A stretch of 56,426 bases of DNA from Prorocentrum cordatum (GCA_963575745.1 CAUYUJ010000089.1:62001-118426), one strand, 5' to 3'. Shown: positions 7,868-49,582, counted from the first letter of the stretch. Numbers and translations: made by a program. The notes: generated from the letters alone by a model not told the origin.

Positions 7868-7969
7868 CTGGGAGCCGGCGGTAAGCCGTCAACCTTGGTT
7901 TGTTTTGCGTATTGCGCGTCGCCACAGCAGGGTCGGGTCACCGCCCAGGCGATAGCCACATAAAGAGGC

Positions 7970-9985
7970 CTAGTATCCTGCCAAAGGCAGGCATTCCTCC
8001 ACTCCCAAAAGGAGTTGTCGGGCAGACTCTAACTCAGCCGCAGCGATAGTGCTCGAGGGGGGGAGGAGGAAAGAGGATGAAGCCACGTTGGGCTCCCACA
8101 TACCACTCGGGAGGAGGGCAGGATAGCCAACAACGGAAGAGAAGCACACATGAAAATCAATCTGCCAGCCACAGCCTACACCCTGATAGGATCTTCCACC
8201 ATCGAAGCTTCCCCGAATGGCGTCGATCAGAATAGCGTTAGCTTTAACATGGGATAGGAAATCATGCCTAAAACGTGTTCTACAAATTCCCTGCCGAGCT
8301 CTGTGTGTTAACTCATCCGCAGCAGTATTGTCCTCCCTGTATACCCACTTGAAGATATGTCTCCCAAGAGAGGCAGCCTGCACACCACATATCTTAGCTA
8401 GAGCGTCTGAGATATTCTGAATACCGCCCACAATGTGGTCGTCATGCACGTTAGCAGTTAAATACAAGCCTTGAAACCACCGCACAACACATTGAGAGTC
8501 TCCCTTCAGTTCAACAGCGAGCTTTCCTGCCTGGAACTCCCACTCCGTGTAATCCTCCAATATCTTAGCATACCGTTTAGACACCACCTCCTCCTTCTTC
8601 CTGCTGAGCTCCTCCGAAAGCATCTCCTCCTCCCTCTCTTCCATAGGCTTCCAAGGAATAGGATCTTTAAGAACCAGGAAATCAGAAACACCAGGAACCT
8701 GGAGTAGCGTAAAAACTTCACGAGCAAACTTGACCCAGGCCGTCTCCGTCCATTCAAGAATATGGTACCAGTATTTCCCTCCCACTAGCTCGAATGGTGT
8801 TCTCCACGGGCGCATGCCAATAGGAACTCGGCCAGTCCTCGCACGAGTCCCAGCACGTCCAGCCTGACTTCCTGAAGAAAATACAAGATGATCCCGCCTG
8901 GTTTTCCACACACCTCCACCGTGCAACATGGACAGTCGCGCCTGCAGGTAGCCGTTGACAGCAGTGCCCGCGTCCACCACCGTGGGCTGATTGTAAAAAC
9001 GGGTTGGGTCCTCGAACCTGTCTCTGAGCCTCGCCGTGTTCTGTGAAAGTTGGGTCCTCGGACGTTTGGCCTCGTTCATGCACATCGTCTTTCTTTTCCG
9101 TCGGTTCATGGGCTCGGAGGGCGTCGTATTACCAGCAGAAGCACCAGGAGCATACATAGGAGACGGCACCTGCTGTGAGCCACCCACTACAGAAGCCTCC
9201 TCAATGTCACCACCGTCTCTGCCAAAACAAGACAATGCAGTATCCTTTGCCCATCTCCACTGCCAGCGCAAGAAGACTTGTGCCAGTGGAGGTCTGCCAG
9301 CGTCACATAACGCTTGCCTCCATCTCCTGTACATACGTGACATGAATACAGCCCACCCCTCCTCCTCCCTCTTAGCTCTCCACGTCATCCTGCTCAACAT
9401 CTCCCCCTCCTCCTTATGTATGAATGCAATTGTTGAACTGTCGACCGTGGCTCCTTCCAGGCCAAAAAGAAACTTAGATCTCACTCTCGATTCATATCGC
9501 TTAAATTTATTATTCCAAGCAATCCTCCTGGAGGTGTAAAAAGCACGATCATTCCAGAAGGCACGAACAGCTTTTCCCATACGGTATCGCACATCATCAT
9601 GACCCTTGAAATTCCTCGCAATCATCGTCCCGAGCACAATAATCTCATCCACCTGCGGAATGGTAATACTCTCAGGGAGGTACGCATTGGGCTCCCTGGT
9701 CATACCTGGCAAGAACAACGTCACCATGAGAGGCTCCGTCACACCGGTGGTAGCTCCCACGTCCACGAACTCAAGACTGCTCTGCTTCCAACGAAAGCCA
9801 TGATCATGGAGAGCCCACGTTAACTGCAGAATCATAGTAGCCAGTGTGGGGCGATCAGGAGCAGTGAGAAGCACATTGTCCGCCCATATGAAGTGACTCA
9901 CAACAATACCTCCAGCCTCACTAGAGAGTCTGACACCAATAGCATCTCTCGCCCAAGCAGAAGTAATATCACCGAACATGACCAA
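7970..9985 (-). pseudogene. RT C-terminal part plus RNase H-like domain (copy 1)
   Basis: FIWADN and VLGT motifs; KGDSQCVV, VYREDNTAAD, FDGG and AAELES motifs. Confidence 0.85.
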
Positions 9986-9999
9986 TGATCGAGCAGTCC

Positions 10000-10782
10000 T
10001 CAGGTCAGGTCCTTCCTTGGAACCTGTCTTAACACACGTTGTCCAAGGGAGCGCATCAGCGCAGACACCCTCAAATTTGAAGACCGCCTCATTTCCAACA
10101 AAAATCTCAAAAGACCATACCGAAGCTCAACATCCACACACAGACGTTCAAGCGTAGAAGAAGCAACTTGGACAGTGAGCGAATCAAATGCAGTGGCAAC
10201 ATCCAAAGAAGCAAGAACGATATTCTCCTCCTTCCCCCACAACCTGGCATGTCTATACATCGCCTTCAAACCCGATGTCACCTCATGTGTCTTGCGACCT
10301 TGCTGAAAGCCATACAGGCACAGAGACGGAGCAACAACAGGAGCAATAGACACCACATGCAAATTGAGTAGAATACACAAGCAGCCCATATACCAAGTGT
10401 TAACAACAGAATTCACAGCAAGTGTACGACTCTCATCAAACTTATTTTCCTTCCCGCTCTTCAACATAATAGATGCACGCATGAACTTCCAAGACTCAGG
10501 TGCCTCCGCCAGTCGCCAGAAGCGTCGCTGGAAACAGTCTAGCACCACACGTAGGGCTTCCCAGGACAAAGAACGTAACATGCGTGCACTTATCCCGTCA
10601 GCACCTACAGCTTTGCCTTCCCGAAGCCTCGAACGAGCACGACAGAGAACATGCATGGTAATAAGAGAAGAAGTGTGAGTGTTGCACGCGCGTGCCACAT
10701 CAGCTTGAACCCGAAGCTGCCCCAGAGTCGCCAAGTCCATAGCAAGACGTCCCTGACCACCCTCGTCATACCCTCCTTCCAC
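10000..10782 (-). pseudogene. Reverse transcriptase N-terminal part (copy 1), frameshifted
   Basis: KAVGADGI, YGFQQGRKT and LDVATAFDSL motifs. Confidence 0.85.
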
Positions 10783-11350
10783 TTACTGCGGTCTTCACAC
10801 CATTCCCCGTCGATCATCATAGAGTTAGTGACTGTCTTAGTCTTGACCCCATCCCGGTAACGATAAAGAAGTAGACGTTTCGTGAACTGCCTTCGAACAC
10901 GATTCCAACGGCGACGACTATCCTTGAACGTGGCCTCATCGATCTGACCAGATTTCCAGAGTTTGTGAACCCTGTAGTGGGCCTCTTTCCTCCTGGGCCT
11001 CCTCCTGGGTCAACTTCGGGACGAGCGAGGCCGATTTAAAGCCATAACAGCGCTTATCGGCAACAGCCCCCTCCTTCAATCGTGATTCCAGGTCGGCTAG
11101 AGAAATAGATCTCAACCTAGTATGCCAAATCACCCTTCCCTCAGACTCCTCCGTGCAGTACTGATTTTTGCGTTTGTTATGTTGGCCACTCCCCCCACCA
11201 GATTTCCACCCAGCAACCTGCGTAACAGCCATATCGAACTCTCTGCACTGTTTCACCCCCTTTCCCTCCAGTACAAACAACGAAGCGAGCGATCGACTGC
11301 CAGTGGCCTTCGTCCTACCAGAGGACTTTCCCTGCAGCGAACATGGGATA

Positions 11351-13357
11351 TCAAAACATAATCTTGTGGTCACTCCATTCCGTGTCACGAGAGCCAGGAG
11401 GATGCGCATACATAACGCGCAACTTCGAACACATAACATGAGTCTCCCAAGTCACAGGGCACGCAACATAATCAATGACATGTTTAGTCCTAGCACCTCC
11501 ACCACACCAGGTAAACTCACGATCCAGGAATGTGTTAATCAGCTTCAGACGTATCTGGGCCATACAGATACACCAGGCACGCGCACATGCACCCTGCAAC
11601 GCCTTCCTGCCAAAGCCCTCCTCCTCCCTCACAGCACGCACATGCACACCACCACCAGAGACACGAAGCCGATCAATCTCAAAATGAGGCTGCACTTCAA
11701 CATTGGCGTCGGCGCACACGACAGCGTCTCGGATACTGTACTTTTGACGCATGCGCTCCACAGCACGAGATAACTTAAGAAGAACGTTCTGGTGCAAATT
11801 GAACGTGGCCTGGTACCCCTCAGACGTTGTCCCAAAGAAGCCTTGCTGAGGAAGATACACGCTAGCATAGATGAATGCGCCCACTTCTGGCCCACGGAAG
11901 GCACAGACCGCAAATCTTCTACCAACAGCGTGCCCCAAGAAACAGGAGTTAAGAGTAGACGAGAATAGTACACCTGCTTGGCCCACTGTCGAACCACTGT
12001 CAAGCTTCACCTCAGCCGAGCAGCGATAGTGGAAACCAGCCTCATTCAACGTACCCCGTCTGAGGAACTGGCACTCCTGGAGCCCGACGAGTTGCACTCC
12101 AAGCTCACGCAAGTAAGGAAGAGCAGATAGAGCAGTAGCATCACTCATCATTCTGATGTTCCAACTGGCCGCCCTCAACGGGCGCGTACGACGCCATACA
12201 GAGTCACCATTCAGCAGCGTCTGCCAGGGCCCAGGGAGAATCTTGTCATCGAACTCAATCACCGATTCTGGCCTCAGAGTCCAACCATGCCTGGGGTCCC
12301 AAGTTCCCAAACATATCTGCCCACCGGTTTCCGGATAGCCCCAAGCCCAAGACATCTCAGGAAGCCCATACTGAATACGTACACGATTGTTCTTCTTCAA
12401 CGGGCTCCTCACACGAAAGTATGTAGCTGTAAGTTTACTGCCTGCACTCACCTGTCCCTCACGCCAAGGCCCACACTGCACTCGAATACTGATGCACGAC
12501 TGGGTAGCTGCAAGAAGAGAGTCATCTTTCCAAAGAGAATCCGCGCGCGAGGAGATGGCCTTCCAGAACACCTCCCTGACCTTCCAGACTGCATCCTTCC
12601 TCGTGCCGTGCACGAGGAAAACACGCAGCCTAAAGACACCGAGCGGCTTGCCCTGGAACTCTCTCTCAGCGGCCTCACGATCGAAGATCTTCACATCAGC
12701 CTCAAACTGCGAGCCAACTTCATCCAAGAGAATATGAATAACTCTGGTGGCCCTGGCCTCGGACATGATGTTACTCGCACGAGCCTGAACGTCTCGAGGG
12801 TATCCCGAAGTCCAGCCCGAGAGCGTCAAGTAACCAGGGACAAATGGGGGTCTCTTCCTAGTGCCTGCATTGCCTCCAAGACTCACCCGAGTAGAAACAG
12901 AGGCAGCATCACTGGCCGCACCATCATTCCCTACCGTCGCCAACTGCTTCTGAACCTGAGCATTTACCACCTCCTGAAGCTGCTGCTGCCTCACCACCTC
13001 CTTCAGTTGTTCAAGGTCACACTTCAAGGGTGCAACCTCCTGCTGAATCTCCCTCATCACGTCCTCCTTGTGCTCCGTCAGGGTACAATTGAGCATATCC
13101 ACCAAATTCTGAAACTCATTACGCAATAGACCAGTCGCGACAGGTTCTTTATCATCTGAAGCGCCCTTACCACCCATCCCAGCACGAGCCATCTTTGAAG
13201 ACCTGGAAGCATCCCCCACCTCGTCCCCCTCAGTGATCTGCTTCATGGAAACATCAGCACAAGCAGCAGCAGCAGCAGCAGATACAAAGGAATGAGCAGG
13301 GCCATTATGCATGACAAGTTGTGGTGGATGGCCAGCAGAGGAAGGGTATGTCGACAT
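11351..13357 (-). pseudogene. ORF1-like coiled-coil protein fused in frame to an APE-type endonuclease (copy 1)
   Basis: ASWNI, GLQEC, SVYLP, ADANV, TW, IDYV and SDH motifs; N-terminal part aligns by eye with ORF1 of copy 2 (FVPGYLTLSGW vs FTPTYLELKGW; GTRKDAVWKV vs GTPRDTLWRV); frameshift after SDH. Confidence 0.85.
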
Positions 13358-13765
13358 CGAATCTGCGATACGTCCTGCTTTCGAAGTTTCCAGCGCCGAG
13401 AATAGAGCACGTTCGTCCTGTGTAGTATGTTCGGGGATCTCGCCCCAGCCTTCAAAGTCCCAGTCGTCTTCTGAGAAGATAGCCGCGATTACAAACCAAC
13501 AAAATCAACAAGGCGGCCCAAGAGAAAAAACTGGAATACAGTGTGCCAGCTAGCCACAAGATATCTGTAATAGTCCTGCCAACAATTCACCAAGCAGAAA
13601 AGATGCCAGCCGCCAGGCGCCAGCAGCCGCCGCTATCGCGAGGGTGCCAAGGCCCGAGAGGAGAGAGATGGACGGGCGCGGCCGAGGGCAGGTGGGGCGC
13701 GGCGGGGGGGGGGGGCACCAAGGAGTCCCCGACGGCACCAAGGCCCCCGCGAGGAGACCTTGGTT

Positions 13766-14575
13766 TTTCTTGCGGTTTGCGGTCCGCCACTAGAATCCGA
13801 ATCCGAATCGGCGGAGCAGTGCAACTGAGCCCCCACCATCTTAGGTAGGTCGCAGCAGAGCGCACGCCACCTTAGCAGCAGCTCTCGTCAGGGCAGCGCA
13901 GGCAGCTAGTTCACAGCAGGTTACCGTGCTACCTGGAGGCAAGCTCATCGCCTCCTCGGCCACATCGTGCCAATGGAAGCTCTGCGAGCTGATGCAGGAG
14001 AAAGAGGAGGGGGAGGAGGAGGAGGAGGAGATGGGAAAATCAACCTGCACGCTGGAACCCCTACCTACAACGCCAATATGAAGCCACCACCCACCTCCAC
14101 ATCCTTCATTACTGACACCCCCATCGAATGCACCACGGAGAGCAGTCTTACGAGTACTGAGGAACTGATCATATGCAAACCAGCGGGTAATAGTTTGGCC
14201 ACCTCTGGCCTCCCACGACAATCTATCCGCACGTTCATTACCCTCACGAAAGAAGTGCTTATACAGATTCTGTCCCGATGCAGGTGAGGTCATTCCCCAT
14301 CCAGACAGCATCGATACCGTATTTTGTAGTGTTCCCACCAGTCGTACATACTGCTTGTTGCGAATCTGCCACTCGCCACACATCCAGTTAACAACCGTCT
14401 TACTATCTCCCAAGATCTCCATCCCAAGACGCTCAATATTCTCACACCTCCACTCCGTTTCATTATCATAATTAGCGGCAATACGTTTGCTAATCCTCTC
14501 ATTCATCTCTCTCTCCTCCTCCTCCTCCGCCTTCACGTGCCTCACACCAGGTGGCCTGGGTAAAACAGTGGCCTC
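13766..14575 (-). mobile_element. 5'-truncated non-LTR retrotransposon copy 1b (RNase H region only)
   Basis: Flanked by an 11-bp direct repeat AGACCTTGGTT (13755-13765 and 14576-14586); T-rich tail at 13764-13771; the target hairpin and subTIR resume at 14587. Confidence 0.85.
13841..14545 (-). pseudogene. C-terminal RNase H-like domain of a LINE ORF2 (truncated, still open)
   Basis: ILGDSKTVVNW, HFFREGNERAD, AFDGG and LPPGSTVTCCELAA motifs. Confidence 0.85.
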
Positions 14576-14682
14576 AGACCTTGGTTACCGCCGGGAACTC
14601 GCAGAGCTTCCTTGCGATATACATGAATGGCATGCGGGCGCGGCAATCTCGAATTCAGCGCGCGCGAGGGTGCACTTTCATG

Positions 14683-15158
14683 GAGGAGGACGCGGAGGAA
14701 AAGACAGAGTGACGAGGAGAAGGAGGTGGAGGAGGCTGAGGAAGAAGGAGGAGGAGGAGAAGGGGCAAGACGAGAAGGGGGAGAAGGAGGATGAGGAGGA
14801 TGACGAGCAGGAGGGGGAAGGGTGGAGGGGCAAAGGGGGGATAATGATGATGATGAGGAGGAGGAGGAGGAGGAGGAGGGCGAGGAGGAGGAGGAGGAGG
14901 AGAAAGAGGCGAAGGAGCAGATCGAGGAGGAAGAGAAGGAGAAGGAAGAGGAGGAGGAGGAGCAGCAGGAGGAGGAGGAGGAGGAGGGGAGAGGAAGAAG
15001 AAGAAGAAAAAGGAGAACGAGGAGGCGGAGGAGAAGGGGAAGTGGGAGGAGGAGGAGGAGGCGACTGAGGAAGAGAAGGAGGAGGAGGAGAAGAAAGAGG
15101 AGGGGAAGGAAGACAAAAAGGAAGAGGAGAAGGAAGGCAGGGGGGAGGGGAGGAGGAG
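14683..15158 (+). repeat. Purine-rich (GAG/GAA)n simple repeat
   Basis: Direct reading. Confidence 0.9.
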
Positions 15159-16118
15159 CAGCCTACAGCTCGAATTGAGAAAAGAAAACATATATTATCT
15201 CGCACAAGCTGTTGCAGAGTGCTCAGTTCTAGCTCTAGTAGCAGACCGATATCAGGCGTCTAGACTGTAGACTGATGATTCGCAGCATTCCCTGTCGATC
15301 GGCGTGCATCTCAGCTCCTTAGATCTCAAATGAATTCACAAAAACATCATCTCTGGTAGTATAGATATGCAGTGTAGATAGTTGTCCAGTCGTAGCTGTG
15401 GTTACAGGCCGAATTCAGACGTCTCGATACCGCAGGCGAATGTACCTGAAGACCTTCTGCTTCAAAAGCCTACAGTTCGAATGAAGTAGAGAAAACTATC
15501 ATCATCATTTGACACATAAGCAGAGTCCGAATAGTTTCTTGATTCCAGCTCTGGTAGCAACCGAATTCAGGCATCGAGATACCTCAGACTAGCCATCCTC
15601 CTGATCCCGTTCGGATCACTGTGCCGAACAGCCCTGCAGCTCATCTGCAGCTCGAAATAAGTTAAGAAGATCCTCATCTTCTCTGAGAAAAAGTAGCAGA
15701 GTACGAATAGTTTGTTGGTCCCAGCTCTGGTAGCAGACCGGGTTCAGGCATCTAGATTGAGACTAGCGCCCCTGATGATTCCCTCTCGATTGCTGCCCCG
15801 AACAGCTTTGTAGCTCATCTGCAGTTCGAACTCAGTTAAGAAAACCGAAAGCACATGCCAAGATGGCACTCAACTGCCAAACTGGCCCACATGCTTTTTC
15901 ACTGTGAAATCCACCCGATCGACCTGAGATTAAGATGGCAAGCACCATCGAATATCAGGAGAAACAATATTATTGCTCCCACGAAATGTCAAATCTCGAG
16001 GGAATCATTTTCTTTACCGACCAAAATTACGCAATACTTCCTTCGAGATTTTTCGGGTCAACTAGCCCGCCAGCCCGCCGGAATAACTGGGAGCCGGCGG
16101 TAAATCGTCAAACTTGGT

Positions 16119-16334
16119 CTTGCTTTGCTCGAAGCCCACAGGGAACAGAGAAGTCCCGCTCAATATTCAGGCCCGCAGCAGAGGAGCAGGTGCTCGACAC
16201 CTTCAGCGAGGCGCTTGCTGGCCAAGAGCTCAGCTTGACACACAGCGCAGAGGGCGGGATGGCGGCAGCCTCCGAAGCTATGTTGCATAGCCAAACGCCA
16301 TGACAGAGATGAAGAGCAGGGCGAGGGAGCACAA
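16119..16334 (-). mobile_element. 3' fragment of another LINE copy in a hairpin loop, interrupted by a Helentron-like insertion at 16336
   Basis: Follows ...cgtcaaacttggt with a T-rich tail; minus strand encodes W..NIASEAAAIPPSA then, after a frameshift, QAELLASKRLAEGVEHLL, matching the C-terminus of copy 1 (WEPNVASSSFLLPPSSTIAAAELESARQLLLGVEECL). Confidence 0.7.
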
Positions 16335-19300
16335 ACTGGCGCCGGCGGTGAACCGTCAACCTAGTCACCGCCGGGAACCTCGTAGAGCTCCTCACACTGG
16401 TAAGAGTGCTGAGAATCGAAGTAGAGTAACAAAAATAAAGATTTTTCGAAAATCTGTATTATTGATTTTTTCGCTGTTCACATTCGCTCAGTTCCCGGAA
16501 GACAACTCATAAGAAAATACATCAGGAGAGCTTCTGTCAGAGAGGAGTTTATATGCCACTGCGACGCGCAAAAATCTGCTTTCTCAAAATAAATGGTTAA
16601 ATATCTTTCAAAGTTTCGCAAAACCGACCAAAAGTCATCAATTTGTCCGCCCCGGCCGGGTGGGCCAACTGGGCGCCGGCGGTAAACCGTCAACCTTTCT
16701 TACCGCCGGGGGACTCGTAGAGCTTCCTGATAATATATAATGTCGAAACAAATTGCAGATAACGTATAGTTTTTCAGCCTAAGCGATTTCAGACCTCTCG
16801 ATGCAACAGCCGAACGCCCTCCGATGCTTCTGGATTGTCTTCTGTACGAGCTCTGTAGCTCTTCTACAGCCCGAGTTACGTGCGTAAATCGACAGCACCT
16901 CTCAAGATGACTCGAACAATACGAACAGTTTGGCAAACCTAGCTCGAGTATCAGACCGAGTTCAGACCTCTGAATGCGACAAGCGGACGCGTCTGATGTC
17001 TCCGAATCGATTCCTGTGATTACCAGCCCTGCAGCCCCCCTGCAGCCCGAGTTAAGTCCAGAAAGCCGACAGCATTTCTCAGGATGACTCGAACAATACG
17101 AACAGCTTCGCGGACCTAGTTCGGGCAGCAGACCGAGTTCCGAGCTCTCGATTCCACAGGCGGACGCGCCTGATGTCTCCAAATCGATTGCTGTCACCAC
17201 CAGCAGTAGCCCCCCTACAGCACGAGTTGAGTGCAGGAAACCGACAGCATCTCTCAAGATGACTCGAACAATACGAACAGTTTCGCGATTCTGGATCGGG
17301 CAGCAGACCGAGATCAGAGCTCTGGATTTAACAGACAAACGCGACTGATAATTCGCAATCGATTTCTGTGAGAATCACCTCTGTAGCTGTCCTATAGCTG
17401 GAGTTAAGTACAGAAAACCGACAGCGTCTGTCAAGATGACTCGAATAAGACGAATAGGTTTGCGGACCTAGCTCGGCTAGCAGACCGAGTTCAGACCTCT
17501 GGATGCAACAGACGAACGCGCCTGATCATTCTGAATCGATAAGGTGTGCTTACCAGCTCTGTAGCTGTCCTGTATCTCGAGTTAAGTCCAATATACTGAC
17601 AGCGCGTATCAAGATGACTCGAAACGGCCGATCCCGCCGCAGTGATTTTTGGCAGTAAAAGGTACCCGATCGAGCTGAGACCAAGATGGCGAGCGGGAAT
17701 AAGATCGAATACCACGGGAAAAAATACTAGAGCTCTAACGAACGGTTGAATTTCGAGAACAAAATTTTCAACCGACCAAAAATCACCAAAAGGTCCGTCG
17801 AGATTTTTCTTGCCAACTGGCGCCGGCGGTGAACCGTCAACCTAGTCACCGCCGGGAACCTCGTAGAGCTCCTGGCACTGGGAAGAGTGCTGAGGATCGA
17901 AGTAGACTCATAAAATGAAGATTTTTCCAAAATCTTAATTTTCGATTTTTTCGATGTTCATATTCGCTCGGTTCCTGGAGGTCAACTCATAGAAAAATGC
18001 AGCAGGAGAGCTGAGCTTCTGTCAGAGAGGAGTTTATATGCCAATGCGACGCGCAAAAATCTGCTTTCTTAAAATGAATTGTCAAGTATCTTTCAATGGC
18101 AAAACTGACCAAAAGTTGCCACTTTGTCCTTTCTGGCCAGGTGGGCCAACTGGGCGCTGGCGGTAAACCGTCAACCTTCCGGGGGACTCGTAGAGCTTCC
18201 TGATAAAATATATAATGTCGCATAAAAATTGCAGAGAATGAATAGTTTTTCAGCCCAAGCAAATTCAGACCTCTCGATGCAACAGCCGAACGCCCCGATG
18301 CTTCTGGATTGTGTTCTGTACGAGCTCTGCAGCTCTCCTACAGCCCGAGTTACGCGCGTAAATCGACAGCACCTCTCAAGATGACTCGAACAATACAAAT
18401 AGTTTGGCAAACCTAGCTCGTGTATTAGACCGAGTTGAAACCTCTGAATGCGACAGGCGGACGCGTCTGATGTCGCCCAATCAATTCCTGTGATTACCAG
18501 CCATACAGCCCCCCTACAACCCGAGTTAAGTGCAGAAAACCAACAGCACCTCTCAGGATGACTCGAACAATACGAATAGCTTCGCGGACCTAGTTCAGGC
18601 AGCAGACCGAGTTCCGAGCTCTAGATTCGAAAAGCGGACGCGTCTCATGTCTCCAAATCGGTTTCTGTGACTACCAGCACTGTAGCCCTCCCCTACAACT
18701 CGAGATAAGTACAGAAAACCGACAACACCTCTCCAGATGACTCAAGGAATACGAATGGTTTCGCGAATCTAGATCAGGCAAGAGACCGAGTTCAGAGCTC
18801 TGGATATAATAGACGAACGCGACTGATGATTCTCGATCGGTTTTTGTAAATATCAGCTCTATAGCGGTCATAGAGCTCGAGATAAGTACAGAAAACCGAG
18901 AGCGCCTGTCAAGATGACTCAAATAAGACGAACAGGTTTGCGGACCTAGCTCGGCTAGCAGACCGAGTTCAGACCTCTGGATGCAACAGGCGAACGCGCC
19001 TGATCATTCTGAATCCATAAGCTGTGCTTACCAGCTCTGTAGCTGTCCTGTATCTCGAGTTAAGTCCGATATACCGAGAGCGCGTATCAAGATGACTCCA
19101 AACGGCCGATCCCGCCCGTGTGCTGTTTGGCAGTAAAAGGTACCCGATCGAGCTGAGATCAAGATGGCGAGCGGGAATAAGATCGAATATTACGGAAAAA
19201 ATACTAGAGCTCTAACGAATGATTGAAATTCGAGAACAAAATTTCTAACCGACCAACAGTCAGCAAAAGGTCCGTCGAGATTTTTCTTGCCAACTAGCTC

Positions 19301-33520: not shown

Positions 33521-33780
33521 TTCAGAAAACCGTCAGCGCGTATCAAGATGACTCGAAACGGCCGATCCCGCCACAGGGCTTTCGATAGTAATATTCACCC
33601 GATCGAGCTGAGATCAAGATGACGAGCGGGAATAAGATCGAATATCACGGGAAAAAATACTAGAGCCCAAACGAATGTTCAGATTTCGAGAACAAAATTT
33701 TCAACCGACCAAAAGTCACCAAAAGTTCCGTCGAGATTTTTCTTGTCAACTAGCTCTCCAGCGCGCCGGAATTACTCTTA

Positions 33781-35992: not shown

Positions 35993-36387
35993 CTGGGAAC
36001 CGGCGGTAAACCGTCAACCCGGTTACCGTCGGGACCCTCGTAGAGCTCTGCATAGAATGAGGTCGGTTCCAAGATAACATCAGAAAAAAACTTCTGCATA
36101 CTAGCTTCAAACATATAGACATTTTTTTCGGTCGTAAAGAATGGTGGTCCCCCCTAGTCTTTTTTTTCGAAATAATGCAGCTAGGGCCCTGAGAATTAAA
36201 CCATCGAAAGCGCCATGATTCACTGCATAGAATAAAAATTCAAATTAGCAAATCGAATTTCAGAATTTCGCCATCTTCGAACCGACCCCAGGTCACCACA
36301 TTGTCCGCCCGGGACGGGTTGGCTAACTAGCTGCACCCCGCGCCGGAATTCCTCTAGCTCATCGATGCCGAAGAGCTCTACGAGGTA
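35993..36387 (-). mobile_element. Complete short element of a divergent family (D)
   Basis: Variant hairpin and cctcgtagagctc / gagctctacgagg subTIRs around a different internal sequence. Confidence 0.75.
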
Positions 36388-39852: not shown

Positions 39853-40898
39853 TGGGCGCCGGCGGTAAACCGTCAACCTTGGTTACCGCCGGGGAACTCG
39901 TAGAGCTTCCAAGCTCGACTTAAGTTGAGAAAACCGACAGCATCTACCAACATTCTGACTCATACTGAGTATTTTTTGGCCTCTGAATGCGACAAGCGGG
40001 CGCGTCTGATGTCTGCGAATCGACTCCTGTCATTACCAGCCCCGCAGCCCCCCTACAGCCCGAGGTCAGTGCGGAAAACCGACAGCATCTCTCAGGATGA
40101 CTCGAACAATACAGTAGTTTCGCGAACCTAGTTCGGGCAGCAGACCGAGTTCCGAGCTCTGGATTCGACAGGCGGACGCGCATGATCTCTTTAAATCGAT
40201 TCATATGATAACCAGCACTGTAGCCCCCTCTCAGCGCAAGTTCAGTGAAGGAAACCGAGAGCACTTCTCAAGATGAACCGACCAATACGAATAATTTCGC
40301 GATTCTAGATCGGGCAGAAGACCGAGTTCAGAGCTCTCGATTCGACAGACAAACGCAACTGACGATTCTGAATCAGTTTCTGTAAACATCAGCTCTGTAG
40401 CTGTCTTACAGCTCGAGATAAGTACAGAAAACCGAGAGTTTCTGTCAAGATGACTCGAATAATACGAATAGGTTTGCGGACCTAGCTCGGCTCACAGACC
40501 GAGTTCAGACCTCTGGATTCAACAGGCGAACGCGCCTAATCATTCTGCATCGATTAGCTGTGCTTACCAGCTCTGTAGATGTCCTAAAGCTCGAGTTATG
40601 TTGAGAAAACCGTCAGCGCGTATCAAGATGACTCGAAACGACCGATCCCGCCAGAGTGCTTGTTGGCTTTCAAAGTTACCCGATCGAGCTGAGATCAAGA
40701 TGGCAGGCGGGAATAAAATCGAATATCACGGGAAAAAATACTAGAGCTCTAACGAATGTTCAAATTTCGAGAACAAAATTTTCAACCGACCAAAGGTCAG
40801 CAAAAGTTCCGTCGAGATTTTTCTTGCCAACTAGCTCTCCAGCGCGCCGGAATTACTCTTAAGCTTCCAGCAACTAGCTTGGGAAGCTCTACGAGTCA
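39853..40898 (-). mobile_element. Complete long-family (C) element
   Basis: Both termini; host split at ctttcaaata|ttcgcaaaacc. Confidence 0.8.
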
Positions 40899-43025
40899 TT
40901 CGCAAAACCACCCAAAAGTTGTCACATTGTCCGCCTCGGCCGGGTCGGCCAACTAGCTCCACCCCGCGCCGGAATTCCTCTAGCTCATCGATGACGAAGA
41001 GCTCTACGAGATATTTTCAACCGACCAAAAGTCAGCAAAAGTTCCGTCGAGACTGGGCGCCGGCGGTAAGCCGTCAACCTTGGTTACCGCCGGGGAACTC
41101 GTAGAGCTTCCAAGCTCGACTTAAGTTGAGAAAACCGACAGCACCTACCAACATTCTGACTGATAGTGAATATTGTTTGACCTCTGAATGCGACAAGCGG
41201 ACGCGTCTGATGTCTGCGAATCGACTCCTGTCACTACCAGCCCCGCAGCCCCCCTACAGCCCGAGGTCAATGCAGAAAACCGACAGCATCTCTCAGGATG
41301 ACTCGAACAATACAATAGTTTCGCGAACCTAGTTCGGGCAGCAGACCGAGTTCCGAGCTCTGGATTCGACAGGCGGACGCGCATGATCTCTTTAAATCGA
41401 TTCATATGAGAACCAGCACTGTATCCCCCCTCTCAGCGCAAGTTGAGTGAAGAAAACCGAGAGCACTTCTCAAGATGACTCGACCAATACGAATATAATT
41501 TCGCGATTCTAGATCGAGCAGAAGACCGAGTTCAGAGCTCTGGATTCGACAGACGAAAGCAACTGACGATTCTGAATCAGTTTCTGTAAATATCAGCTCT
41601 GCAGCTGTCTTACAGCTCGAGTTAAGTACAGAAAACCGAGAGTTTCTGTCAAGATGACTCGAATAATACGAACAGGTTTGCGGACCTAGCTCGGCTCACA
41701 GACCGAGTTCAGACCTCTAGGTTCAACATGCGAACGCGCCTGATCACTCTGCATGCATTAGCTGTGCTTACCAGCTCTGTAGCTGCCCTAGAGCTCGAGT
41801 TATGTTGATAAAACCGTCAGCGCATATCAAGATGACTCGAAACGGCCGATCCCGCCAGAGTGTTTTTTGGCCTCCAAAGTTACCCGAGCTGAGATCAAGA
41901 TGGCGATCGGGAATAAGATCGAATATCACGGGAAAAAATACTAGAGCTCTAACGAATGTTCAAATTTCGAGAACAAATTTTTCAACCGACCAAAAGTCAT
42001 CAAAACTGGGCGCCGGCGGTAAACCGTCAACCTTTCTTACCGCCGGGGGACTCGTAGAGCTTCCTAACAATATATAATGTGGAAAAGGATTTCAGAGAAC
42101 GACTAGTTTTTCAGCCCAAGCGATTATACTCTCAAGATGACTCTAAGAAAACAAACGAACAGGTTTCCAATCGAGCTCGAGTATGAAACCGATTTCAGAC
42201 CTCTGAATGCGACAGGCGGACACGTCTGATGTCTGCGGATCGATTCCTGTGATTACCAGCTCTGCAGCCCCCATACAGCCTGAGTTAAGTGCAGAAAACC
42301 GAGAGTACATCTCAGGATGACTCGAATAATACAACAGTTTCGCGGATCTCGTTCGAGCAGCAGGCTGAGTTCCGAGCTCTCGGTTCGACGAAGGGACGCG
42401 CCTGATGTCTCGAAATCGATTCCTGTGCACGATTTATGTACAGAAAACCGAGAGCACTTATCTTGAGAAACCCGACAGCGCGTATCAAGGTGACTCGAAA
42501 CGGTCGTTCCCGCCTGCCTGCTTTTTGGCCTTCAAAGTTAACCGATCGAGCTGAGATCGAGATGGCGAGCGGGAATAAGATCGAATAGCATGGGAAAAAA
42601 TACTAGAGCTCTAACGAATAGTCAAATTTTGAGCACAAAATTTTCAACCGACCAAAAGTCACCAAAAGGTCCGTCGAGATTTTTCTTGCCAACTAGCTCT
42701 CCAGCTTCCCGGAACTGGCGCCGGCGGTAAACCGTCAACCTGGTCACCGCCGGGAACCTCGTAGAGCTGATTCCACAAGTAAGAGTGCTCGAAGTCGAAA
42801 GAGAGAGCTTCTGGAAGCATTTCTGGAACAAACAGAAAAATTGATTTTTTTCGTGTCGACATGAAGATGGTTCCTCCAAGTGTTTTGATAGTAAAAATGC
42901 GCCTACAGAGCTCATACTAAGACAGAGAGGCCCTCATATTCGTTTACAGGTGCGAAAAATCTGCTTTCTGAAAATGAATTGTCAAATATCTTTCAAAAAA
43001 CTGCAAAACCACCAAAAAGTTACCA

Positions 43026-44652
43026 CTGGGCGCCGGCGGTAAACCGTCAACCTTGGTTACCGCCGGGGAACTCGTAGAGCTTCCAAGCTCGACTTAAGTT
43101 GAGAAAACCGAGAGCACCTACCAACATTCTGACTCATAGTGAATATTTTTTGACCTCTGAATGCGACAAGCGGACGCGTCTGATCAGACCGAGTTCAGAG
43201 CTCTCAATGCGACAGGCGGACGCGTCTGATGTCTGCGAATCGACTCATGTGATTTCCAGCCCTGCAGCCCCCCTACAGCCCGAGTTAAGTGCAGAAACCG
43301 AAAGCATCTCTCAGGATGACTCGAATAATATAATAGTTTCGCAGACCTGTTTCGAGCAGCAGACCAAGTTCTGAGCTCTCGAATCGACCAACGAACGCGC
43401 CTGCTATGTGCAAATCGATTTCTATGACCCGCAGCACTGTAGCTCTCCCCCAGCACGAGTTGAGTGCAGAAAATTGAGAGCACTTTTCACGATAATTCTG
43501 ACAAAACGAATAGTTTCGCGAACCTAGCTCGGGCAGCAGGCCGAGTTCAGAGCTCTCGATACAACAGACAAACGCGCCCGATAATTCTCAATCGATTTCT
43601 GTGACTGTAGGCTCTGTAGCTGCCTACAGCTCGAGTTAAGTACAGAAAATACCGAGAGCGTTTGTCAAGAAGACTCGAATAATACGAATAGATTTGCGGA
43701 CCTAGCTCGGCTAGCAGACCCAGTTCAGACCTCTGGAGTCAAGAGGCGAACGCGCCTGATGATTTTGAGTGCGATAGGAGTGCTTACCGGCACTGTAGCT
43801 GCCCTGCAGCTCGAATTAAGTACAAAATACTCACCACGCGTATCAAGTTGACTCGAATAATACGAATAGGTTTGCGGACCTAGCTCGGCTAGCAGATCGA
43901 GTTCAGACCTATGGATTCAACAGGCGAACGCGCCTGATGATTCTGAGTGCGATAGGTGTGCTTACCAGCACTGTAGCTGCCCTACAGCTCGAGTTAAGTA
44001 GAAATACCGACAACGCGTATCATGTTTACTCGAATAATACGAATAAGTTTGCGGACCTAGCTAGGCTAGCAGACCGAGTTCAGACCTATGGATTGAACAG
44101 GCGAACGCGTCTGATGATTCTAAGTGCGATAGATGTGCTTACCAGCACTGTAGCTGCCCTACAGTTCGAGTTAAGTAGGAAATACCGACAATGCGTATCA
44201 AGTTGACTCGAATAATACGAATAGGTTTGCGGACCTAGCTCGGCTAGCAGACCGAGTTCAGACCTATGGATTCAACACGCGAACGACTGATGATTCTGAG
44301 TGCGATAGCTGTGCTTACCAGCTCTGTAGCTGTTCTACAGCTCGAGTTAAGTACAAAATACAGACAGCGCGTATTAAGATGACTCGAAACGGCCGATCCC
44401 GCCAGTGTGCTTTTTGGCAGTAAAAGGTACCCGATCGAGCTGAAATCAAGATGGCGAGCGGGAATGAGATCGAATATCACGGGAAAAAATACTAGAGCAC
44501 AGACGAATTGTTGAATTTCGAGAACATAATTTTCAACCGACCAAAAGTTGTGAAAAGTTCAGTTCTTTTTTTTCGAGCCAACTAGCTCTCCAGCGCGCCG
44601 GAATTACTCTTAGCTTCCAGCTATAAGTAGCTAAGGGAAGCTCTACGAGTTA
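43026..44652 (-). mobile_element. Complete long-family (C) element with expanded ~177-bp repeats; innermost member of the 8-deep nest
   Basis: Host split at gttacca|ctttgtcc; repeat anchors at 43672, 43850, 44027, 44205 and 44381. Confidence 0.85.
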
Positions 44653-45161
44653 CTTTGTCCTTTCTGGCCGGGCCGGCCAACTAGCTCCACCTCGCGCCGG
44701 AATTCCTCTAGCTCATCGATGCCGAAGAGCTCTACGAGGTATTACTCTTAAGCTTCCAGCAATAACCTGCTAAGGGAAGCTCTACGAGTTAATTCCGTCG
44801 ATATTTTTCTTGCCAACTAGCTCTCCAGCGCGCCGGAATTACTCTTAAGCTTCCATCAACTAGCTTAGGGAAGCTATACGAGTCATTTTTCTTGCCAACT
44901 AGCTCTCCAGCGCCCCGGAATTACTCTAAAGCTTTCAGCAATAACTTTCTAAGGGAAGCTCTACGAGTTACTAGCTCCACCCCGCGCCGGAATTCCTCTA
45001 GCTCATCGATTCCGAAGAGCTCTACGAGGTACTAGCTCTCCAGTGCGCCGGAATTACTCGTAAGCTTCCAGCAACTAGCTTAGGGAAGCCCCACGAGTCA
45101 CTAGCTCCACCCCGCGCCGGAATTCCTCCAGCTCATCGATGCCGAAGAGCTTTACGAGGTA
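44653..45161 (-). mobile_element. Run of seven displaced 5'-terminal fragments closing the nested elements
   Basis: Fragments end at 44741, 44791, 44885, 44970, 45031, 45100 and 45161; each resumes the sequence of an element interrupted upstream. Confidence 0.85.
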
Positions 45162-46868
45162 CTGGGCGCCGGCGGTAAACCGTCAACCTTGGTTACCGCC
45201 GGGGAACTCGTAGAGCTTCCAAGCTGAAAACCGAGAGCACCTACCAACATTCTGACTCATAGTGAATATTTTTTTACCTCTGAATGCGACAAGCGGACGC
45301 GTCTGATGAGACCGAGTTCAGGCCTCTCAATGCGACAGGCGAACGCGTCTGATGTCTGCGAATCGACTCATGTGATTACCAGCCCTGCAGCCCCCCGACA
45401 GCCCGAGTTAAGTGCAGAAAACCGACAGCATCTCTGAGGATGACTCGAATAATATAATAGTTTCGCAGACTGTTTCGAGAAGCAGACCAAGTTCTAAGCT
45501 CTCGAATCGACCAACGAACGCGCCTGATGTGTGCAAATCGATTTCTATGACCCGCAGCACTGTAGCCCTCCCCCAGCACGAGTTGAGTGCAGAAAATTGA
45601 GAGCACTTTTCACCATGAATCGGACAATACGAATAGTTTCGCGAACCTTGCTCGGGCAGCAGGCCGAGTTCAGAGCTCTCGATACAACAGACAAACGCGC
45701 CCGATAATTATCAATCGATTTCTGTGACTGTAGGCTCTGTAGCTGCCTACAGCTCGAATTGAGTACAGAAAATACCCAGAGTGTTTGTCAAGATGACTCG
45801 AATAATACGAATAGATTTGCGGACCTAGCTCAGCTAGCAGACAGACCTATGGATTTAACCGTCGAACGCGCCTGATGATTCTGAGTGCGATAGGTGTGCT
45901 TACCAGCACTGTAGCTGCCCGGCAGCTCGGATTAAGTACAAAATACCCACCACACGTATCAAGTTCACTCGAATGATACGAATAGGTTTGCGGACCTAGA
46001 TCGGCTAGCAGACCGAGTTCAGACCTATCGATTCAGCAGGCGAACGCGCCTGATGATTCTGAGTGCGATAGGCGTGCTTACCAGCAATGTAGCTGCCCTA
46101 CAGCTCGAGTTAAGTAGAAAATATCGACAACGCGTATCAAGTTGACTCGAATGATACGAATAGGTTTGCGGACCTAGCTCGGCTAGCAGACCGAGTTCAG
46201 ACCTATGCATTCAACAGGCGAACGCGCCTGACGATTCTGAGTGCGATAGGTGTGCTTACCAGCACTGTAGCTGCCCTACAGCTCGAGTTAAGTAGAAAAT
46301 ATCGACAACGCGTATCAAGTTGACTCGAATAATACGAATAGGTTTGCTGACCTAGCTCGGCTAGCAGACCGAGTACAGACCTATGGATTCAACAGGCGAA
46401 CGCGCCTCATGATTCTGAGTGCGATAGCTGTGCTTGCCAGCTCTGTAGCTGACCTACAGCTGGAGTTAAGTACAAAATACCGACAACGCGTATCAAGATG
46501 ACTCGAAACGACCGATCCCGCCAGAGTGCTTTTTGGCAGTAAAAGGTACCCGATCGAGCTCAGATCAAGATGGCGAGCGGGAATAAGATCGAATATCACG
46601 GGAAAAATACTAGAGCTCTAACGAATTGTCAAATTTCGAGAACGTAATCTTCAACCGACCAAAAGTTGTGAAAAATTCAGTTCTTTTTTTTCGAGCCAAC
46701 TGGCGCCGGCCGTGAACCGTCAACCTGGTCATCGCCGGGAACCTCGTAGAGCTCCTCTCACTAGTAAGAGTGCAGAGAATCGACACAGAATGAAAAATTG
46801 AGATTTTTCGAAAATCTTCAAACTTATTTTTTTTCAATGTTCATATTCGCTCAGTTCCCGGAAGTCAA

Positions 46869-47270
46869 CTGGAAACCGGCGGTAAACCGTCAACCAGATT
46901 ACCGCCGGGACCCTCGTAGAGCTCTTTTCTATCACCGCGCTTCTCGTAATACATCAAGAGAGCTTCTGGAGCGAGAAACGAAAAAATCGAAGAATCACGT
47001 TTTTTCTGTTTTCAGCCAACGTTGGTTCCCCCAAGTGTTTTGATAGTAATACTGTATCTACAGAACTGAAAATTTTACTGGCGAGTGCGGCATAACTCAC
47101 TACAGGTGCGAAAAATCTGGATTCTCGAAATGAATTGTTAAATATCTTTCAAATATTCGCAAAACCACCCAAAAGTTGTCACATTGTCCGCCTCGGCCGG
47201 GTGGCCCAACTAGCTCCACCCCGCGCCGGAATTCCTCTAGCTCATCGACGACGAAGAGCTCTACGAGGTA
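46869..47270 (-). mobile_element. Complete short element, family E (related to the one opening at 36388)
   Basis: Both termini; host split at gaagtcaa|ctcat. Confidence 0.8.
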
Positions 47271-47625
47271 CTCATGCAAAAATGCATCGAGAGAGCTGAG
47301 CTGCTGTCAGAATGGAGTTCATATGCCAATGCTCGGCGTAAAAATCTGCTTATTCAAAATAAATGGTCAAATATCTTTCAAATTTTCGCAAAACCACCCA
47401 AATGGGCGCCGGCGGTAAACCGTCAACCTTGGTTTTGTTTGTTTGTTTGCGCTCCTGTGCACCAGCTGTAAAGCAGCTGGAGGAGAACGAGTCCCGAAGC
47501 AGCGAACGCAGCGAACGGGCAACGCACAAAGCGTTCAGGCGGCACACCTACACAGTGAACCTCCTTTGAAGGTCAGGCAACGTTTCAACGATCGGAGTTA
47601 AGGGGAAAGCAGAGCAGAAAGAAGA

Positions 47626-49203
47626 TTACGAGTAGCCTACTACACAATACTCATGTGGCGCAGGATAAAAGTAAAAGGCACACATCTCATCATAAGTCCA
47701 GCCGTATGGATGCCAGTCGAAATCCATAAGCTCCGATGGTGCAGGCATATGGCACAGGTCCATGTACGACCACTCCAGTTCTTCAAATCTCGCACTGGAC
47801 ATTTGCGGATTCCGCACCGCCTCCTCGACTGAGACAGCATTGTGCAGCATACCGAGCAGGGGAAGGACGTCGGCGAGTCGCATATGTAGTAACTTCGTAC
47901 CGCAAATGACGTCCCCCATAGCGACATACGTGCGCACGACCACTGTGAAAGGGTCGAAGAACTTCGCACATCCCAAGTCAACATACAGTGGGTGCCGTTG
48001 GACCTCTGGGGACGCCGCAAGAATGGAGCCCACCTCGGACTTGCTGACCCTGCGGATACACTTGAACTCATTCTCAGCGCCCATAAGGAGAAAACCCTCC
48101 AACGGCGTCCCAAGAGACTCACTCAGACCAGCATAACCCGCATACCCGCTCTCTGGGTGGAGGACGTCCTGGAGATTCTCGCCACTCGCAGCCTCCCTCC
48201 AAGCACCAACAATGAAACATATAGGCACCCAAGTATCGTGTACATCATCTGCGCAGCACGTCACCAGTTCCCGCGGCGCAGGGAACTCAATATCATAAGT
48301 GGGAACACAGCCTGGATTCAATACAACATTGAGCGTGACATCGGAATCTGCCTGCACTTTGGGCGTCGAAGAAAACTCTGCACTCGAAAGAGGTACCGCG
48401 GGAAGCAACGAGTGAGCCCTTACATCAGCCAAAGAAGCACTCTGCGCACAGCCAGGGTTCGATACCACAGCGAGCGTGACATCGGATACTGCCTCCAACT
48501 CCTCCTCCGCCTCCTCCGTCACTTTCCCAAGAACAGTTCCTGAAGCTTCTCCCTCCATCCCAAAAACACTCTCTGTCTGACAGCCGACTTCAAAGGGCTC
48601 CAGAGGATAAGATGAAAGAAGTGCATACACGTCCGAAGAAGATGAGACCACTGCCTTCACATCAGAAGAAGATGAGACCACTGCCTTCACATCAGAAGAA
48701 GAAGATGAAAGAACTGCATACATGTCAGAAGAAGATGAGACCACTGCCTGCACATCCTCGCAAGTGAACTGAGTTTGCACGCCGGCACCCATTGAAGAAA
48801 CTGGAATGCTTTGAGAATTCACTTGGACCTCAGCATCCATTGAAGACACTCGAATGCTTGGAAAGGGGGAATGCACTTCGTCAACCTGGACACCAGCATC
48901 AATTGAAAATACTCGAATGCTTTGAGAAGGATGTTCGACCTCGTCAACCTGGACCCCAGCATCAATAGCAGAAGAAAAACCGCGAAGTGCAACGGAATCA
49001 ACTATCGGGCAGCTATCAGAGGGATGGAGTAATGCTGTCAACAACTCATTCGCCTGAGCATCCAACTCTGCATGCAAGACCGTGTCGCGGGCGACTAGGC
49101 CTTCGAGCACCAACGGAAGAGGACAATTCGGTCGAACCCATTTAAGTTGACAAGCCCGAGCCCGACGCAAACACCTGGATGCGAGACTCCGCACATGAGG
49201 CAT
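47626..49203 (-). CDS. Intronless ~525-aa acidic, Ser/Val-rich hypothetical protein with internal repeats
   Basis: Uninterrupted ORF (first ATG at 49203); repeats DAGVQVDEV, DVKAVVSSSS and SDVTLxVVxNPGC; no APE or RT motifs. Confidence 0.6.
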   Translation of the reverse strand: MPHVRSLASRCLRRARACQLKWVRPNCPLPLVLEGLVARDTVLHAELDAQANELLTALLHPSDSCPIVDSVALRGFSSAIDAGVQVDEVEHPSQSIRVFSIDAGVQVDEVHSPFPSIRVSSMDAEVQVNSQSIPVSSMGAGVQTQFTCEDVQAVVSSSSDMYAVLSSSSSDVKAVVSSSSDVKAVVSSSSDVYALLSSYPLEPFEVGCQTESVFGMEGEASGTVLGKVTEEAEEELEAVSDVTLAVVSNPGCAQSASLADVRAHSLLPAVPLSSAEFSSTPKVQADSDVTLNVVLNPGCVPTYDIEFPAPRELVTCCADDVHDTWVPICFIVGAWREAASGENLQDVLHPESGYAGYAGLSESLGTPLEGFLLMGAENEFKCIRRVSKSEVGSILAASPEVQRHPLYVDLGCAKFFDPFTVVVRTYVAMGDVICGTKLLHMRLADVLPLLGMLHNAVSVEEAVRNPQMSSARFEELEWSYMDLCHMPAPSELMDFDWHPYGWTYDEMCAFYFYPAPHEYCVVGYS

Positions 49204-49560
49204 CTGGCACAAACAAAACCACAAATGATAGGTATATGGCAGAAAACTGAAGGGAGATGTGTGAGGACACCTGAGAGATCACAACAATGATATACTGCAA
49301 ATTGAACAATATGCAATCCACTCAAGGCAGATCTGAAAGAACCGAGACTTACGAGCACCACTCTGGGCAGTGAGGAACAAGTCAGCGTATACAAATTGCC
49401 GCCGCCGAACCGCAACGAGAAATGAATATGAGAGGCCAACAATGACAAGCAAGATGTACAGGGAGATGGGCAGTTGCGTAAGCAGAGCAAAACAACACGC
49501 TAGCTCAACGTTCACCTTCGCGGAGGTTCCCCAGGCAGGAGAAAATGAACGTAGCGGAGC

Positions 49561-49582
49561 CTTGAGCCTTGAGCCTTGAGCC
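49561..49582 (-). other. Triplicated spliced-leader relic (G)GCTCAAG
   Basis: Plus strand cttgagc cttgagc cttgagc c, directly abutting the resumed target ggggaactcgtagagcttcc. Confidence 0.7.

Follow-up and report, generated by a model that had tools for sequence, protein, structure and literature searches.

The window analysed here, a stretch of 56,426 nucleotides from the dinoflagellate Prorocentrum cordatum (GCA_963575745.1, CAUYUJ010000089.1:62001-118426), is occupied from ~5.6 kb to its end by an array of ~41 copies of a single hairpin-bearing repeat, into which five retrotransposons without long terminal repeats (non-LTR), of the long interspersed nuclear element (LINE) type, LINE1 to LINE5, have been inserted (Table 1). 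The hairpins sit in a conserved block of ~60 bp, ACTGG(G)CGCCGGCGGT(A/G)AA-CCGTCAACC-(TTGG/TGG/TTTC/TCCC...)-T(T/C)ACCGCCGGG-(3-4 nt)-CTCGTAGAGCT, the loop of which, CCGTCAACC, is matched 42 times window-wide at ≤1 mismatch against 10.8 expected, with 41 of the 42 matches on the plus strand. A fuzzy scan of the window recovered 41 left arms (40 plus, one minus), of which 35 belong to intact palindromes, two are followed by an internal deletion and four run into a LINE tail. The blocks are separated by 177-bp tandem repeats and further common modules, and an old diverged array copy carries its hairpin at ~5905-5945.

The five 3' junctions were read directly from the window and then aligned. They read ...CCGTCAACCTTGGTT / TGTTTTGCG at 7900/7901 (LINE1), ...GAGGAGACCTTGGTT / TTTCTTGCGG at 13765/13766 (LINE2), ...TCGTCAAACTTGGTC / TTGCTTTGC at 16119/16120 (LINE3), ...CCGTCAACCTGGTC / TCTCTTTTTTTTGCG at 21785/21786 (LINE4) and ...CCGTCAACCTTGGTT / TTGTTTGTTTG at 47434/47435 (LINE5), and share one insertion point, after CC(T)TGGT(T/C) and before ACCGCC. 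Intact palindromes continue at this point with ACCGCCGG, which puts the break at the border of loop and stem, 2 nt into the 3' arm. To the right of all five junctions the DNA is T/G-rich and, read on the opposite strand, gives A-rich tails such as CGCAAAACAA and GCGCAAACAAACAAACAAA, so that all five LINEs lie on the minus strand. This confirms the core of the original prediction, made from the sequence alone, that five insertions occupy the same hairpin position in the same orientation, and refines two of its details: the entry point falls within the stem and not in the loop proper, and four of the five junctions follow a left arm and loop of the hairpin, while the junction at 13765 has only ACCTTGGTT on its left, abutting the 5' end of LINE1. 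The chance that a random insertion would fall at this exact position and orientation is 41/(2 x 56426), or ~3.6e-4 by hand calculation, and five such insertions are therefore not a matter of chance. Moreover, tblastn with all LINE open reading frames (ORFs) found no LINE coding piece elsewhere in the window, in keeping with the earlier claim that none lies outside these sites in the 56 kb; five of the five insertions in the window are independent events that share one nucleotide and one orientation.

Table 1. Coordinates of the host array, the LINE insertions and related features in the window
Feature	Coordinates	Strand	Details
HINE-like array, head-to-tail, with internal 177-bp tandem repeats	5560..56426	-	left limit approximate
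Left arm + loop, palindrome with LINE1+LINE2	7867..7900	+	ACCTTGGTT at 7892-7900 = left copy of 9-bp duplication
LINE1, ~5.86 kb	7901..13756	-	broken ORFs 7970-9985, 10000-10782, 11351-13357: ORF1-like region, APE, RT, C-terminal domain
Middle ACCTTGGTT copy	13757..13765	.	between LINE1 5' end and LINE2 3' tail
LINE2, 5'-truncated	13766..14577	-	ORF 13841-14545, 234 aa
Orphan right half	14578..14612	+	right ACCTTGGTT copy, right arm ACCGCCGGG, subterminal repeat CTCGCAGAGCT
Left arm + loop, palindrome with LINE3	16086..16119	+	junction alignment
LINE3, 215-bp 3' fragment, A-rich tail	16120..16334	-	upstream part and hairpin right half replaced by next element's ACTGG end
Left arm + loop, TGGTC variant, palindrome with LINE4	21754..21785	+	junction alignment
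LINE4, full length, 5.87 kb	21786..27655	-	ORF2 22048-25998 (1316 aa); two GGCTCAAG relics at 5' end
Orphan right half	27656..27700	+	GCCGGGAACCTCGTAGAGCTCC; target ACC missing
Inverted HINE-like element, 1222 bp	32300..33521	+	between T32299 and T33522 of 177-bp satellite monomer; termini 5'-AACTCGTAGAGC...GGCGCCCAGT-3'
Intact target example	43025..43085	+	ACTGGGCG, stem CCGGCGGTAA(A)CC, loop GTCAACCTT, stem GGTTACCGCCGG, then GGGAACTCGTAGAGC
Left arm + loop, TTGGTT variant, palindrome with LINE5	47402..47434	+	junction alignment
LINE5, 2.1 kb, without ORF2	47435..49579	-	532-aa ORF 47626-49224, (CAAA)n tail, three GCTCAAG relics at 5' end
Orphan right half	49580..49620	+	GCCGGGGAACTCGTAGAGCTTCC; target ACC missing

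On the 5' side, the interrupted palindromes resume in orphan right halves. The junctions read ...CCTCAG / ACCTTGGTTACCGCCGGG at 14577/14578 for LINE2, ...GTTCTTGA / GCCGGGAACCTCGTAGAGC at 27655/27656 for LINE4 and ...CCTTGA / GCCGGGGAACTCGTAGAGC at 49579/49580 for LINE5, the latter two with loss of ACC. ACCTTGGTT occurs at 7892-7900, 13757-13765 and 14578-14586, from which LINE1 and LINE2 can be recognized as a tandem that occupies a single palindrome between the copies of a 9-bp duplication; the copy in the middle represents a second duplication or else read-through sequence that came with the LINE2 RNA. The insect LINE R1 can prime with read-through target sequence, and priming of this kind may, by analogy, explain the middle copy. 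When the window was scanned for right-hand repeats that lack a left arm, only the three orphan halves and one subterminal-repeat copy of the inverted element (see below) came up. The five insertions thus combine an A-rich 3' tail, 5' truncation and variable target duplication, as expected of LINEs.

Contigs from four coded sequencing runs were aligned to LINE4 and its flanks. In runs X2, X4 and X5, contigs join 21785 to 27656 with ACC between them, which is an intact palindrome and hence an empty site. The loose contig ends upstream of the ACTGG boundary (21754) are heterogeneous (agreement 0.41-0.68). Contigs at least 99% alike to LINE4 made up 1998 of the 5733 aligned in X2, and, among the matches listed, there is one X5 contig in which a degenerate left arm, GCCGGAAAACCGCAAACCAGC, stands before the LINE 3' end. 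Hairpin-flank words are far more abundant than LINE words in the runs, in depth figures that are not copy numbers. These contigs may lend the targeting weak support.

The insertions are separate events. ORF2 of LINE1 is 37% identical to that of LINE4 in the reverse transcriptase (RT), 34% and 25% in the C-terminal parts and 26% in the endonuclease, and the LINE2 ORF matches the last ~180 ORF2 residues at 30% identity to LINE4 and 34-35% to LINE1, so that the ORF2 pieces of LINE1, LINE2 and LINE4 are overall 24-37% identical. All-against-all blastn of the five elements produced three matches of 23-25 nt, all between LINE2 and LINE5, and none for the other pairs, and the insertions are flanked by different hairpin-unit subtypes. 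Low ORF2 identity, the lack of DNA similarity and the different flanks together exclude a segmental duplication of one insertion, an outcome that had been named in advance as one that would refute the targeting. A specificity kept by at least three lineages at 24-37% identity would also be an old one.

ORF2 of LINE4 comprises an N-terminal apurinic/apyrimidinic endonuclease (APE) region, an RT and a C-terminal domain. With the Pfam RT profile RVT_1, LINE4 reaches 24.1 bits, short of the 29.6 cut-off, and the relatives P0013, P0015 and P0003 (33-46% identical) reach 32.3-34.3 bits and exceed it; the RT assignment is made through them. A model of the N-terminal 330 residues, folded from a nine-sequence alignment (pLDDT 73, pTM 0.75), retrieved the ExoIII, APE1, R1Bm, L1 and TRAS1 endonucleases with Foldseek (E 1.7e-9 to 7e-9), and the APE motifs QE, YLPD, DANVE, NTF, LDY and SDH are visible in alignment A4; the model thus predicts an APE-type fold with its catalytic motifs in place. 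Pfam Exo_endo_phos gave a weak hint only, in relative P0015 (E 0.05), and neither ORF2 nor profile A2 had a relevant match among solved-structure sequences.

Relatives of ORF2 are numerous, with 815 proteins at E ≤ 1e-3 and 30 at E ≤ 1e-30 in a representative library, and a word-indexed search added two proteins matching at 54% and 45% identity. The sources of protein P0017, which shares 85% identity with a part of ORF2, give its name as Prorocentrum cordatum / Polarella glacialis, and homologues of the 532-aa ORF of LINE5 are likewise named Prorocentrum cordatum. A protein-cluster Atlas returned generic RVT_1 clusters only, and cluster look-ups for ten distant relatives gave no informative names. 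A metagenome scan found one related locus, L001 (67% identical), and two viral-contig scans found no further LINE copies. LINE5 shares a 17-nt motif, CTGCCTGGGGAACCTCC, with LINE4 in the 5' untranslated region (read from the element ends) and is taken as a non-autonomous rider on the same machinery.

Several features of the LINE proteins merit separate mention. In RT motif C, WADN replaces the usual (F/Y)ADD in LINE4 (23749-23760, minus strand), LINE1 (9875-9886, minus strand) and relatives P0002-P0142; among 150 representatives, [FYW]ADN was present in 54, [FYW]ADD only in 12 and neither in 84, mostly fragments, and A-D-N is invariant in the nine-sequence alignment A1. Judged from these alignments, this would be an RT clade, apparently active, with Asn at the position of the second catalytic Asp. 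The C-terminal domain (ORF2 residues 1091-1316; 22051-22728, minus strand) gave a model with pLDDT 86 and displays RNase H-like motifs in the order GDS..., RE.N..AD.LTH, then FDGG and T.TELSAAE, in which the C-terminal half of RNase H would come first, a possible circular permutation of the modelled fold. Matches of this model to RNase H1 are weak and partial (Foldseek rank 49 over 83 columns; VIA Z 3.5-3.8 over model residues 38-128), RVT_3 hints in the domain stay below the cut-off, and a wide VIA-align search with the model found no match above Z 5. Furthermore, the ORF1 region of LINE4 (26002-27703, minus strand) consists of two overlapping frames, 26534-27703 and 26002-26574, and ORF2 follows directly after the ORF1 stop codon in the same frame and without an ATG. 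In L001 an ATG lies in frame 30 nt past the ORF1 stop, and P0019 reads straight through; the arrangement could reflect a frameshift mutation, a programmed shift or readthrough.

The 5' ends of the LINEs carry remnants of a spliced leader. In LINE sense, LINE5 starts CCGG/CTCAAG GCTCAAG GCTCAAG GCTCC and LINE4 starts CCGG/CTCAAGAACGTCTCG GCTCAAGAACGTCTC, and the L001 contig opens with GGCTCAAG from its first base. According to PMC12014239, the spliced leader of dinoflagellates, DinoSL (DCCGTAGCCATTTTGGCTCAAG), has GGCTCAAG at its 3' end, and DNA-encoded DinoSL relics, often truncated and repeated, are an accepted mark of retroposed RNAs. The relics at the LINE 5' ends therefore show trans-splicing of the LINE RNAs. 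Where the 5' junction lies, the target ...CCCGGC and the leader ...GGCTCAAG overlap by GGC, a microhomology join.

The nature of the host repeat emerges from its one inverted copy, which splits a single 177-bp monomer into the halves that flank it. The filled site reads GAGTTATGT[AACTCGTAGAGC...GGCGCCCAGT]TCAGAAAACCG, i.e. GAGTTATGT[AACTCG...CCCAGT]TCAGAAAACCG; three paralogous empty sites, at 30148, 39383 and 55453, read GAGTTATGTTCAGAAAACCG, and the joined flanks align over the junction with 76-86 uninterrupted satellite copies. The host repeat is thus a discrete mobile unit of 1222 bp that inserted between two T residues (T^T) without target duplication. Its sense strand is the minus strand of the window, the same as that of the LINEs, and the hairpin is therefore the element's 3' palindrome. 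From 5' to 3' the element begins with AA and a subterminal inverted repeat, CTCGTAGAGCTTCC, starting 2 nt from the 5' end, followed by central 177-bp tandem repeats (arrays of which fill most units), a second subterminal repeat, GGAAGCTCTACGAG, 60 nt from the 3' end, and a GC-rich palindrome of 10-12 bp with the conserved loop GGTTGACGG, whose stem ends 8 nt, CGCCCAGT, before the 3' terminus. A long impure (GAG)n tract lies within the host element at 14714-15158, immediately downstream of the LINE1+LINE2 insertion.

This layout fits that of HINEs, for which the available sections of PMC4067079 describe subterminal inverted repeats located 2-4 nt from the 5' end and ~38-60 bp from the 3' end, and, for HINEs and Helentrons, a palindrome 8-35 bp from the 3' terminus together with central tandem repeats or a microsatellite. 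The T^T insertion, seen in one example with three empty sites, agrees with the T(T/C) or TT target given for Helitron2 and Helentron in the consulted part of PMC13085455. A Helitron2-like RepHel is known from the dinoflagellate Symbiodinium, and Helentron transposases carry an APE domain whose function is left unexplained in the portion of PMC8788227 consulted. The earlier suggestion of a Helentron-like 3' hairpin as host is borne out by these four structural features and by the minus-strand sense, and structure alone supports assignment of the repeat as a non-autonomous, HINE-like element of the Helitron2/Helentron type. Replitrons were considered as the host element and set aside: short direct terminal repeats, their hallmark in the part of PMC10288648 seen, do not match the termini here by inspection.

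The array copies, all head to tail on the minus strand, end sharply at the 3' side (CCCAGT), whereas most of them are truncated at the 5' side. We examined 36 unit junctions, three of them without paralogues, and in the 33 informative ones the parental sequence just past the junction is ACT (AGT in element sense) in 19 and ATT in six more. The truncated copies thus begin just after an internal AGT, the same triplet as that at the element's end. This pattern could arise through alternative nicking by the transposase or a nick-anchored microhomology deletion, and points to a sequence-specific nick or join by the host transposase. Insertion between the terminal T of one copy and the next host T would by itself give head-to-tail arrays. 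To the left of the array lie a 73/147-bp tandem repeat (3611-4376), a (CTC)n tract (3255-3382) and a ~1.1-kb AT-rich block (4400-5500) of unusual composition (GC 0.44 in the 4001-6000 bin).

Relatives of the hairpin exist elsewhere. A pattern scan of prokaryote genome contigs returned three loci, none with a LINE. Two of them, L002 (2826-2890) and L004 (1686-1740), are intact hairpin relatives with the loop GGTTGACGG (element sense) and a similar subterminal repeat; they lie on AT-rich contigs binned into a marine Nitrospinota metagenome-assembled genome, in which a search with ORF2 found no match, and these contigs are probably eukaryotic and misbinned. The third, L003, was rejected as a chance match in a bacterial contig, without a palindrome. 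The presence of the loop in L002 and L004 shows that it is conserved beyond this genome and thus a stable target.

As a single strand, the hairpin alone folds at -13 to -15.7 kcal/mol (z = -3.4 at -15.7) and, with the flanking inverted repeats, at -30.4 kcal/mol (z = -8.6), the folded stretches spanning 61-91 nt; the stem gains two pairs in the TTGG and TGG variants. A preference of the LINEs for the (T)TGGT loop variant had been proposed and is only suggestive, with five of 21 such sites hit against none of the 19 other intact sites: C(21,5)/C(40,5) is ~0.03 by hand, or 0.021 with a slightly different count, and the junction bases could be partly LINE-derived. The hairpin was also considered as a small RNA or spliced-leader RNA gene, an idea dropped when Rfam returned no family for the whole window at gathering scores and none within 41000-43400 at E ≤ 1, and a tRNA scan of the window found no tRNAs; the resemblance of the hairpin loop to DinoSL is loose and was judged by eye only. 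The palindromes at 18149-18190 and 30244-30285 lack the right arm and part of the loop (..CAACCTTCCGGGGG, ..CAACCTTGGGACTCG), and these small deletions are centred on the LINE entry spot.

Taken together, we conclude, with a probability of roughly 0.78, that a non-LTR clade encoding ORF1 followed by an ORF2 with APE, RT and C-terminal domain specifically targets the 3' palindrome of a HINE-like element, in the orientation of the host element. In the mechanism we propose, the APE endonuclease would recognize the duplex around AACC(T)TGGT(T/C)^ACC and nick the window plus strand 2 nt inside the stem, and the freed T-ended 3'-OH would prime reverse transcription at the A-rich tail of the RNA. A second-strand cut 9 bp away would then generate the ACCTTGGTT duplication of LINE1+LINE2, and one 3 bp to the other side the ACC loss of LINE4 and LINE5, with full-length cDNA potentially joined through GGC, a microhomology that the target shares with the copied spliced-leader 3' end. 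We infer that the LINE endonuclease is the nicking protein and that it reads the sequence rather than the hairpin shape. The stem is symmetric and all five insertions nonetheless share one orientation, and loop bases lie within the duplicated 9-mer, which argues for sequence-specific recognition. A multicopy, conserved palindrome may moreover offer a safe haven, with read-through transcripts released by trans-splicing.

Other explanations of the shared site have to be weighed against specific targeting. The palindrome could be a fragile or nicked site, exposed through a cruciform, stalled replication or a cut by the host transposase, with the LINEs using an existing 3'-OH. Helitron-type transposases, though, cut at element termini and are not known to cut inside the hairpin, all five events used the same nucleotide and strand of a nearly symmetric stem, and the LINE ORF2s have kept their APE motifs across lineages 24-37% identical. 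We therefore regard such an origin as unlikely, even with the stable single-strand folding of the hairpin alone and with its flanking repeats, the internal deletions at 18149 and 30244, which speak for an unstable site, the junction types that vary among events, and the APE domain of Helentron transposases (PMC8788227, consulted in part) in its favor. It is far less probable still that the hairpin repeat is a retroposon resembling a short interspersed nuclear element (SINE) with a 3' tail in common with the LINEs, the apparent insertions then being LINE/SINE chimeras: the sharp 3' end of the units (CCCAGT), their variable 5' truncation and their LINE-like orientation would fit, but the A-rich tail of the LINE lies internal to the left arm, with the right arm resuming at the LINE 5' junction. 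The units, moreover, have no A-rich tail or spliced-leader relic, TTGGCTCAAG at ≤1 mismatch has two matches against 4.3 expected by chance, and the one clean insertion is T^T without target duplication. Finally, descent of all copies from one ancestral LINE insertion, multiplied through segmental duplication or array amplification and conceivable in so highly repetitive an array, has next to no likelihood given copies whose DNA similarity is confined to three matches of 23-25 nt, whose ORF2s are 24-37% identical and which occupy different hairpin subtypes and flanks.

A number of points weigh against specific targeting of a HINE-like palindrome as we propose it. The events are only five, all within one 56-kb window; one of them, LINE3, is a 215-bp fragment without a coding match, identified as a LINE from its tail and junction alone, and another, LINE5, is without RT. 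The second strand shows two outcomes, a 9-bp duplication versus a 3-bp deletion, and the middle ACCTTGGTT could be RNA-borne read-through and not a duplication. L001, the sole relative retrieved with flanks, ends before its 3' end. On the host side, no RepHel ORF lies within the window, so that membership is judged by structure, the T^T insertion is known from a single example, and the palindrome is only 3-4 nt from the next element's repeat, tighter than in published cases because the copies abut directly. The wording of the original prediction, that this family has adopted the hairpin as its target, is supported by those five events in the one window.

A further step would be that the LINE clade has co-evolved with Helitron2/Helentron elements, its endonuclease reading the terminator hairpin, perhaps in extruded form, and that insertions of this kind provided a route to the Helentron APE domain, because the LINE lies downstream of the would-be RepHel position, co-oriented and with APE first in ORF2. 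We consider this scenario doubtful; if true, each insertion would disable the 3' end of the host element.

The targeting described here has partial precedents. An APE-type LINE that likewise targets a sequence inside another multicopy transposon is Tx1L of Xenopus, its target being the DNA transposon Tx1D. Tx1D, however, is a cut-and-paste element, whereas the LINEs of this window enter a rolling-circle-type element at its 3' palindrome, in a dinoflagellate host, and their RT is so diverged that no solved-structure sequence was matched. Other examples are R1, TRAS and SART, sequence-specific APE LINEs of insects, which insert into ribosomal DNA (rDNA) or telomeric repeats. With these the present LINEs share the N-terminal APE fold in ORF2 and the fixed nucleotide and orientation of a multicopy target, but the target class differs, and the endonuclease structures 2ei9 and 1wdu were matched by the N-terminal model at 13-16% sequence identity. 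The host repeat resembles HINE/DINE-1/Helentron/Helitron2 elements in its subterminal repeats, 3' palindrome, central tandem repeats and T^T insertion (PMC4067079, PMC13085455 and PMC8788227, in the parts consulted), and differs in having no RepHel partner in the window and in its head-to-tail copies, most of them 5'-truncated after an internal AGT. Additionally, the repeated GGCTCAAG remnants recall those at the 5' ends of retroposed dinoflagellate genes (PMC12014239, available text), with the difference that here the retroposed RNA is a retrotransposon's own and the relic stands in the 5' junction through the GGC microhomology. Among the matches listed in our literature search, to whose scope subscription journals and Repbase reports did not belong, there was no LINE aimed at a Helitron-type hairpin and no site-specific LINE in dinoflagellates. 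Within the same literature, where only the Symbiodinium RepHel paper was found, this would be the first time that the structure of a HINE-like family is described from a dinoflagellate.

Known targets of LINEs comprise rDNA, telomeres, small RNA genes, microsatellites and one cut-and-paste transposon. A LINE clade aimed at the terminator hairpin of a rolling-circle element would add a new target class, and would be a case of one mobile element specifically inactivating another. Its endonuclease, as judged from sequence, may be a natural example of stringent recognition for comparison with those of R1, TRAS and L1. For the LINEs themselves, trans-splicing would allow copies buried in a co-oriented array to be expressed without a promoter of their own.

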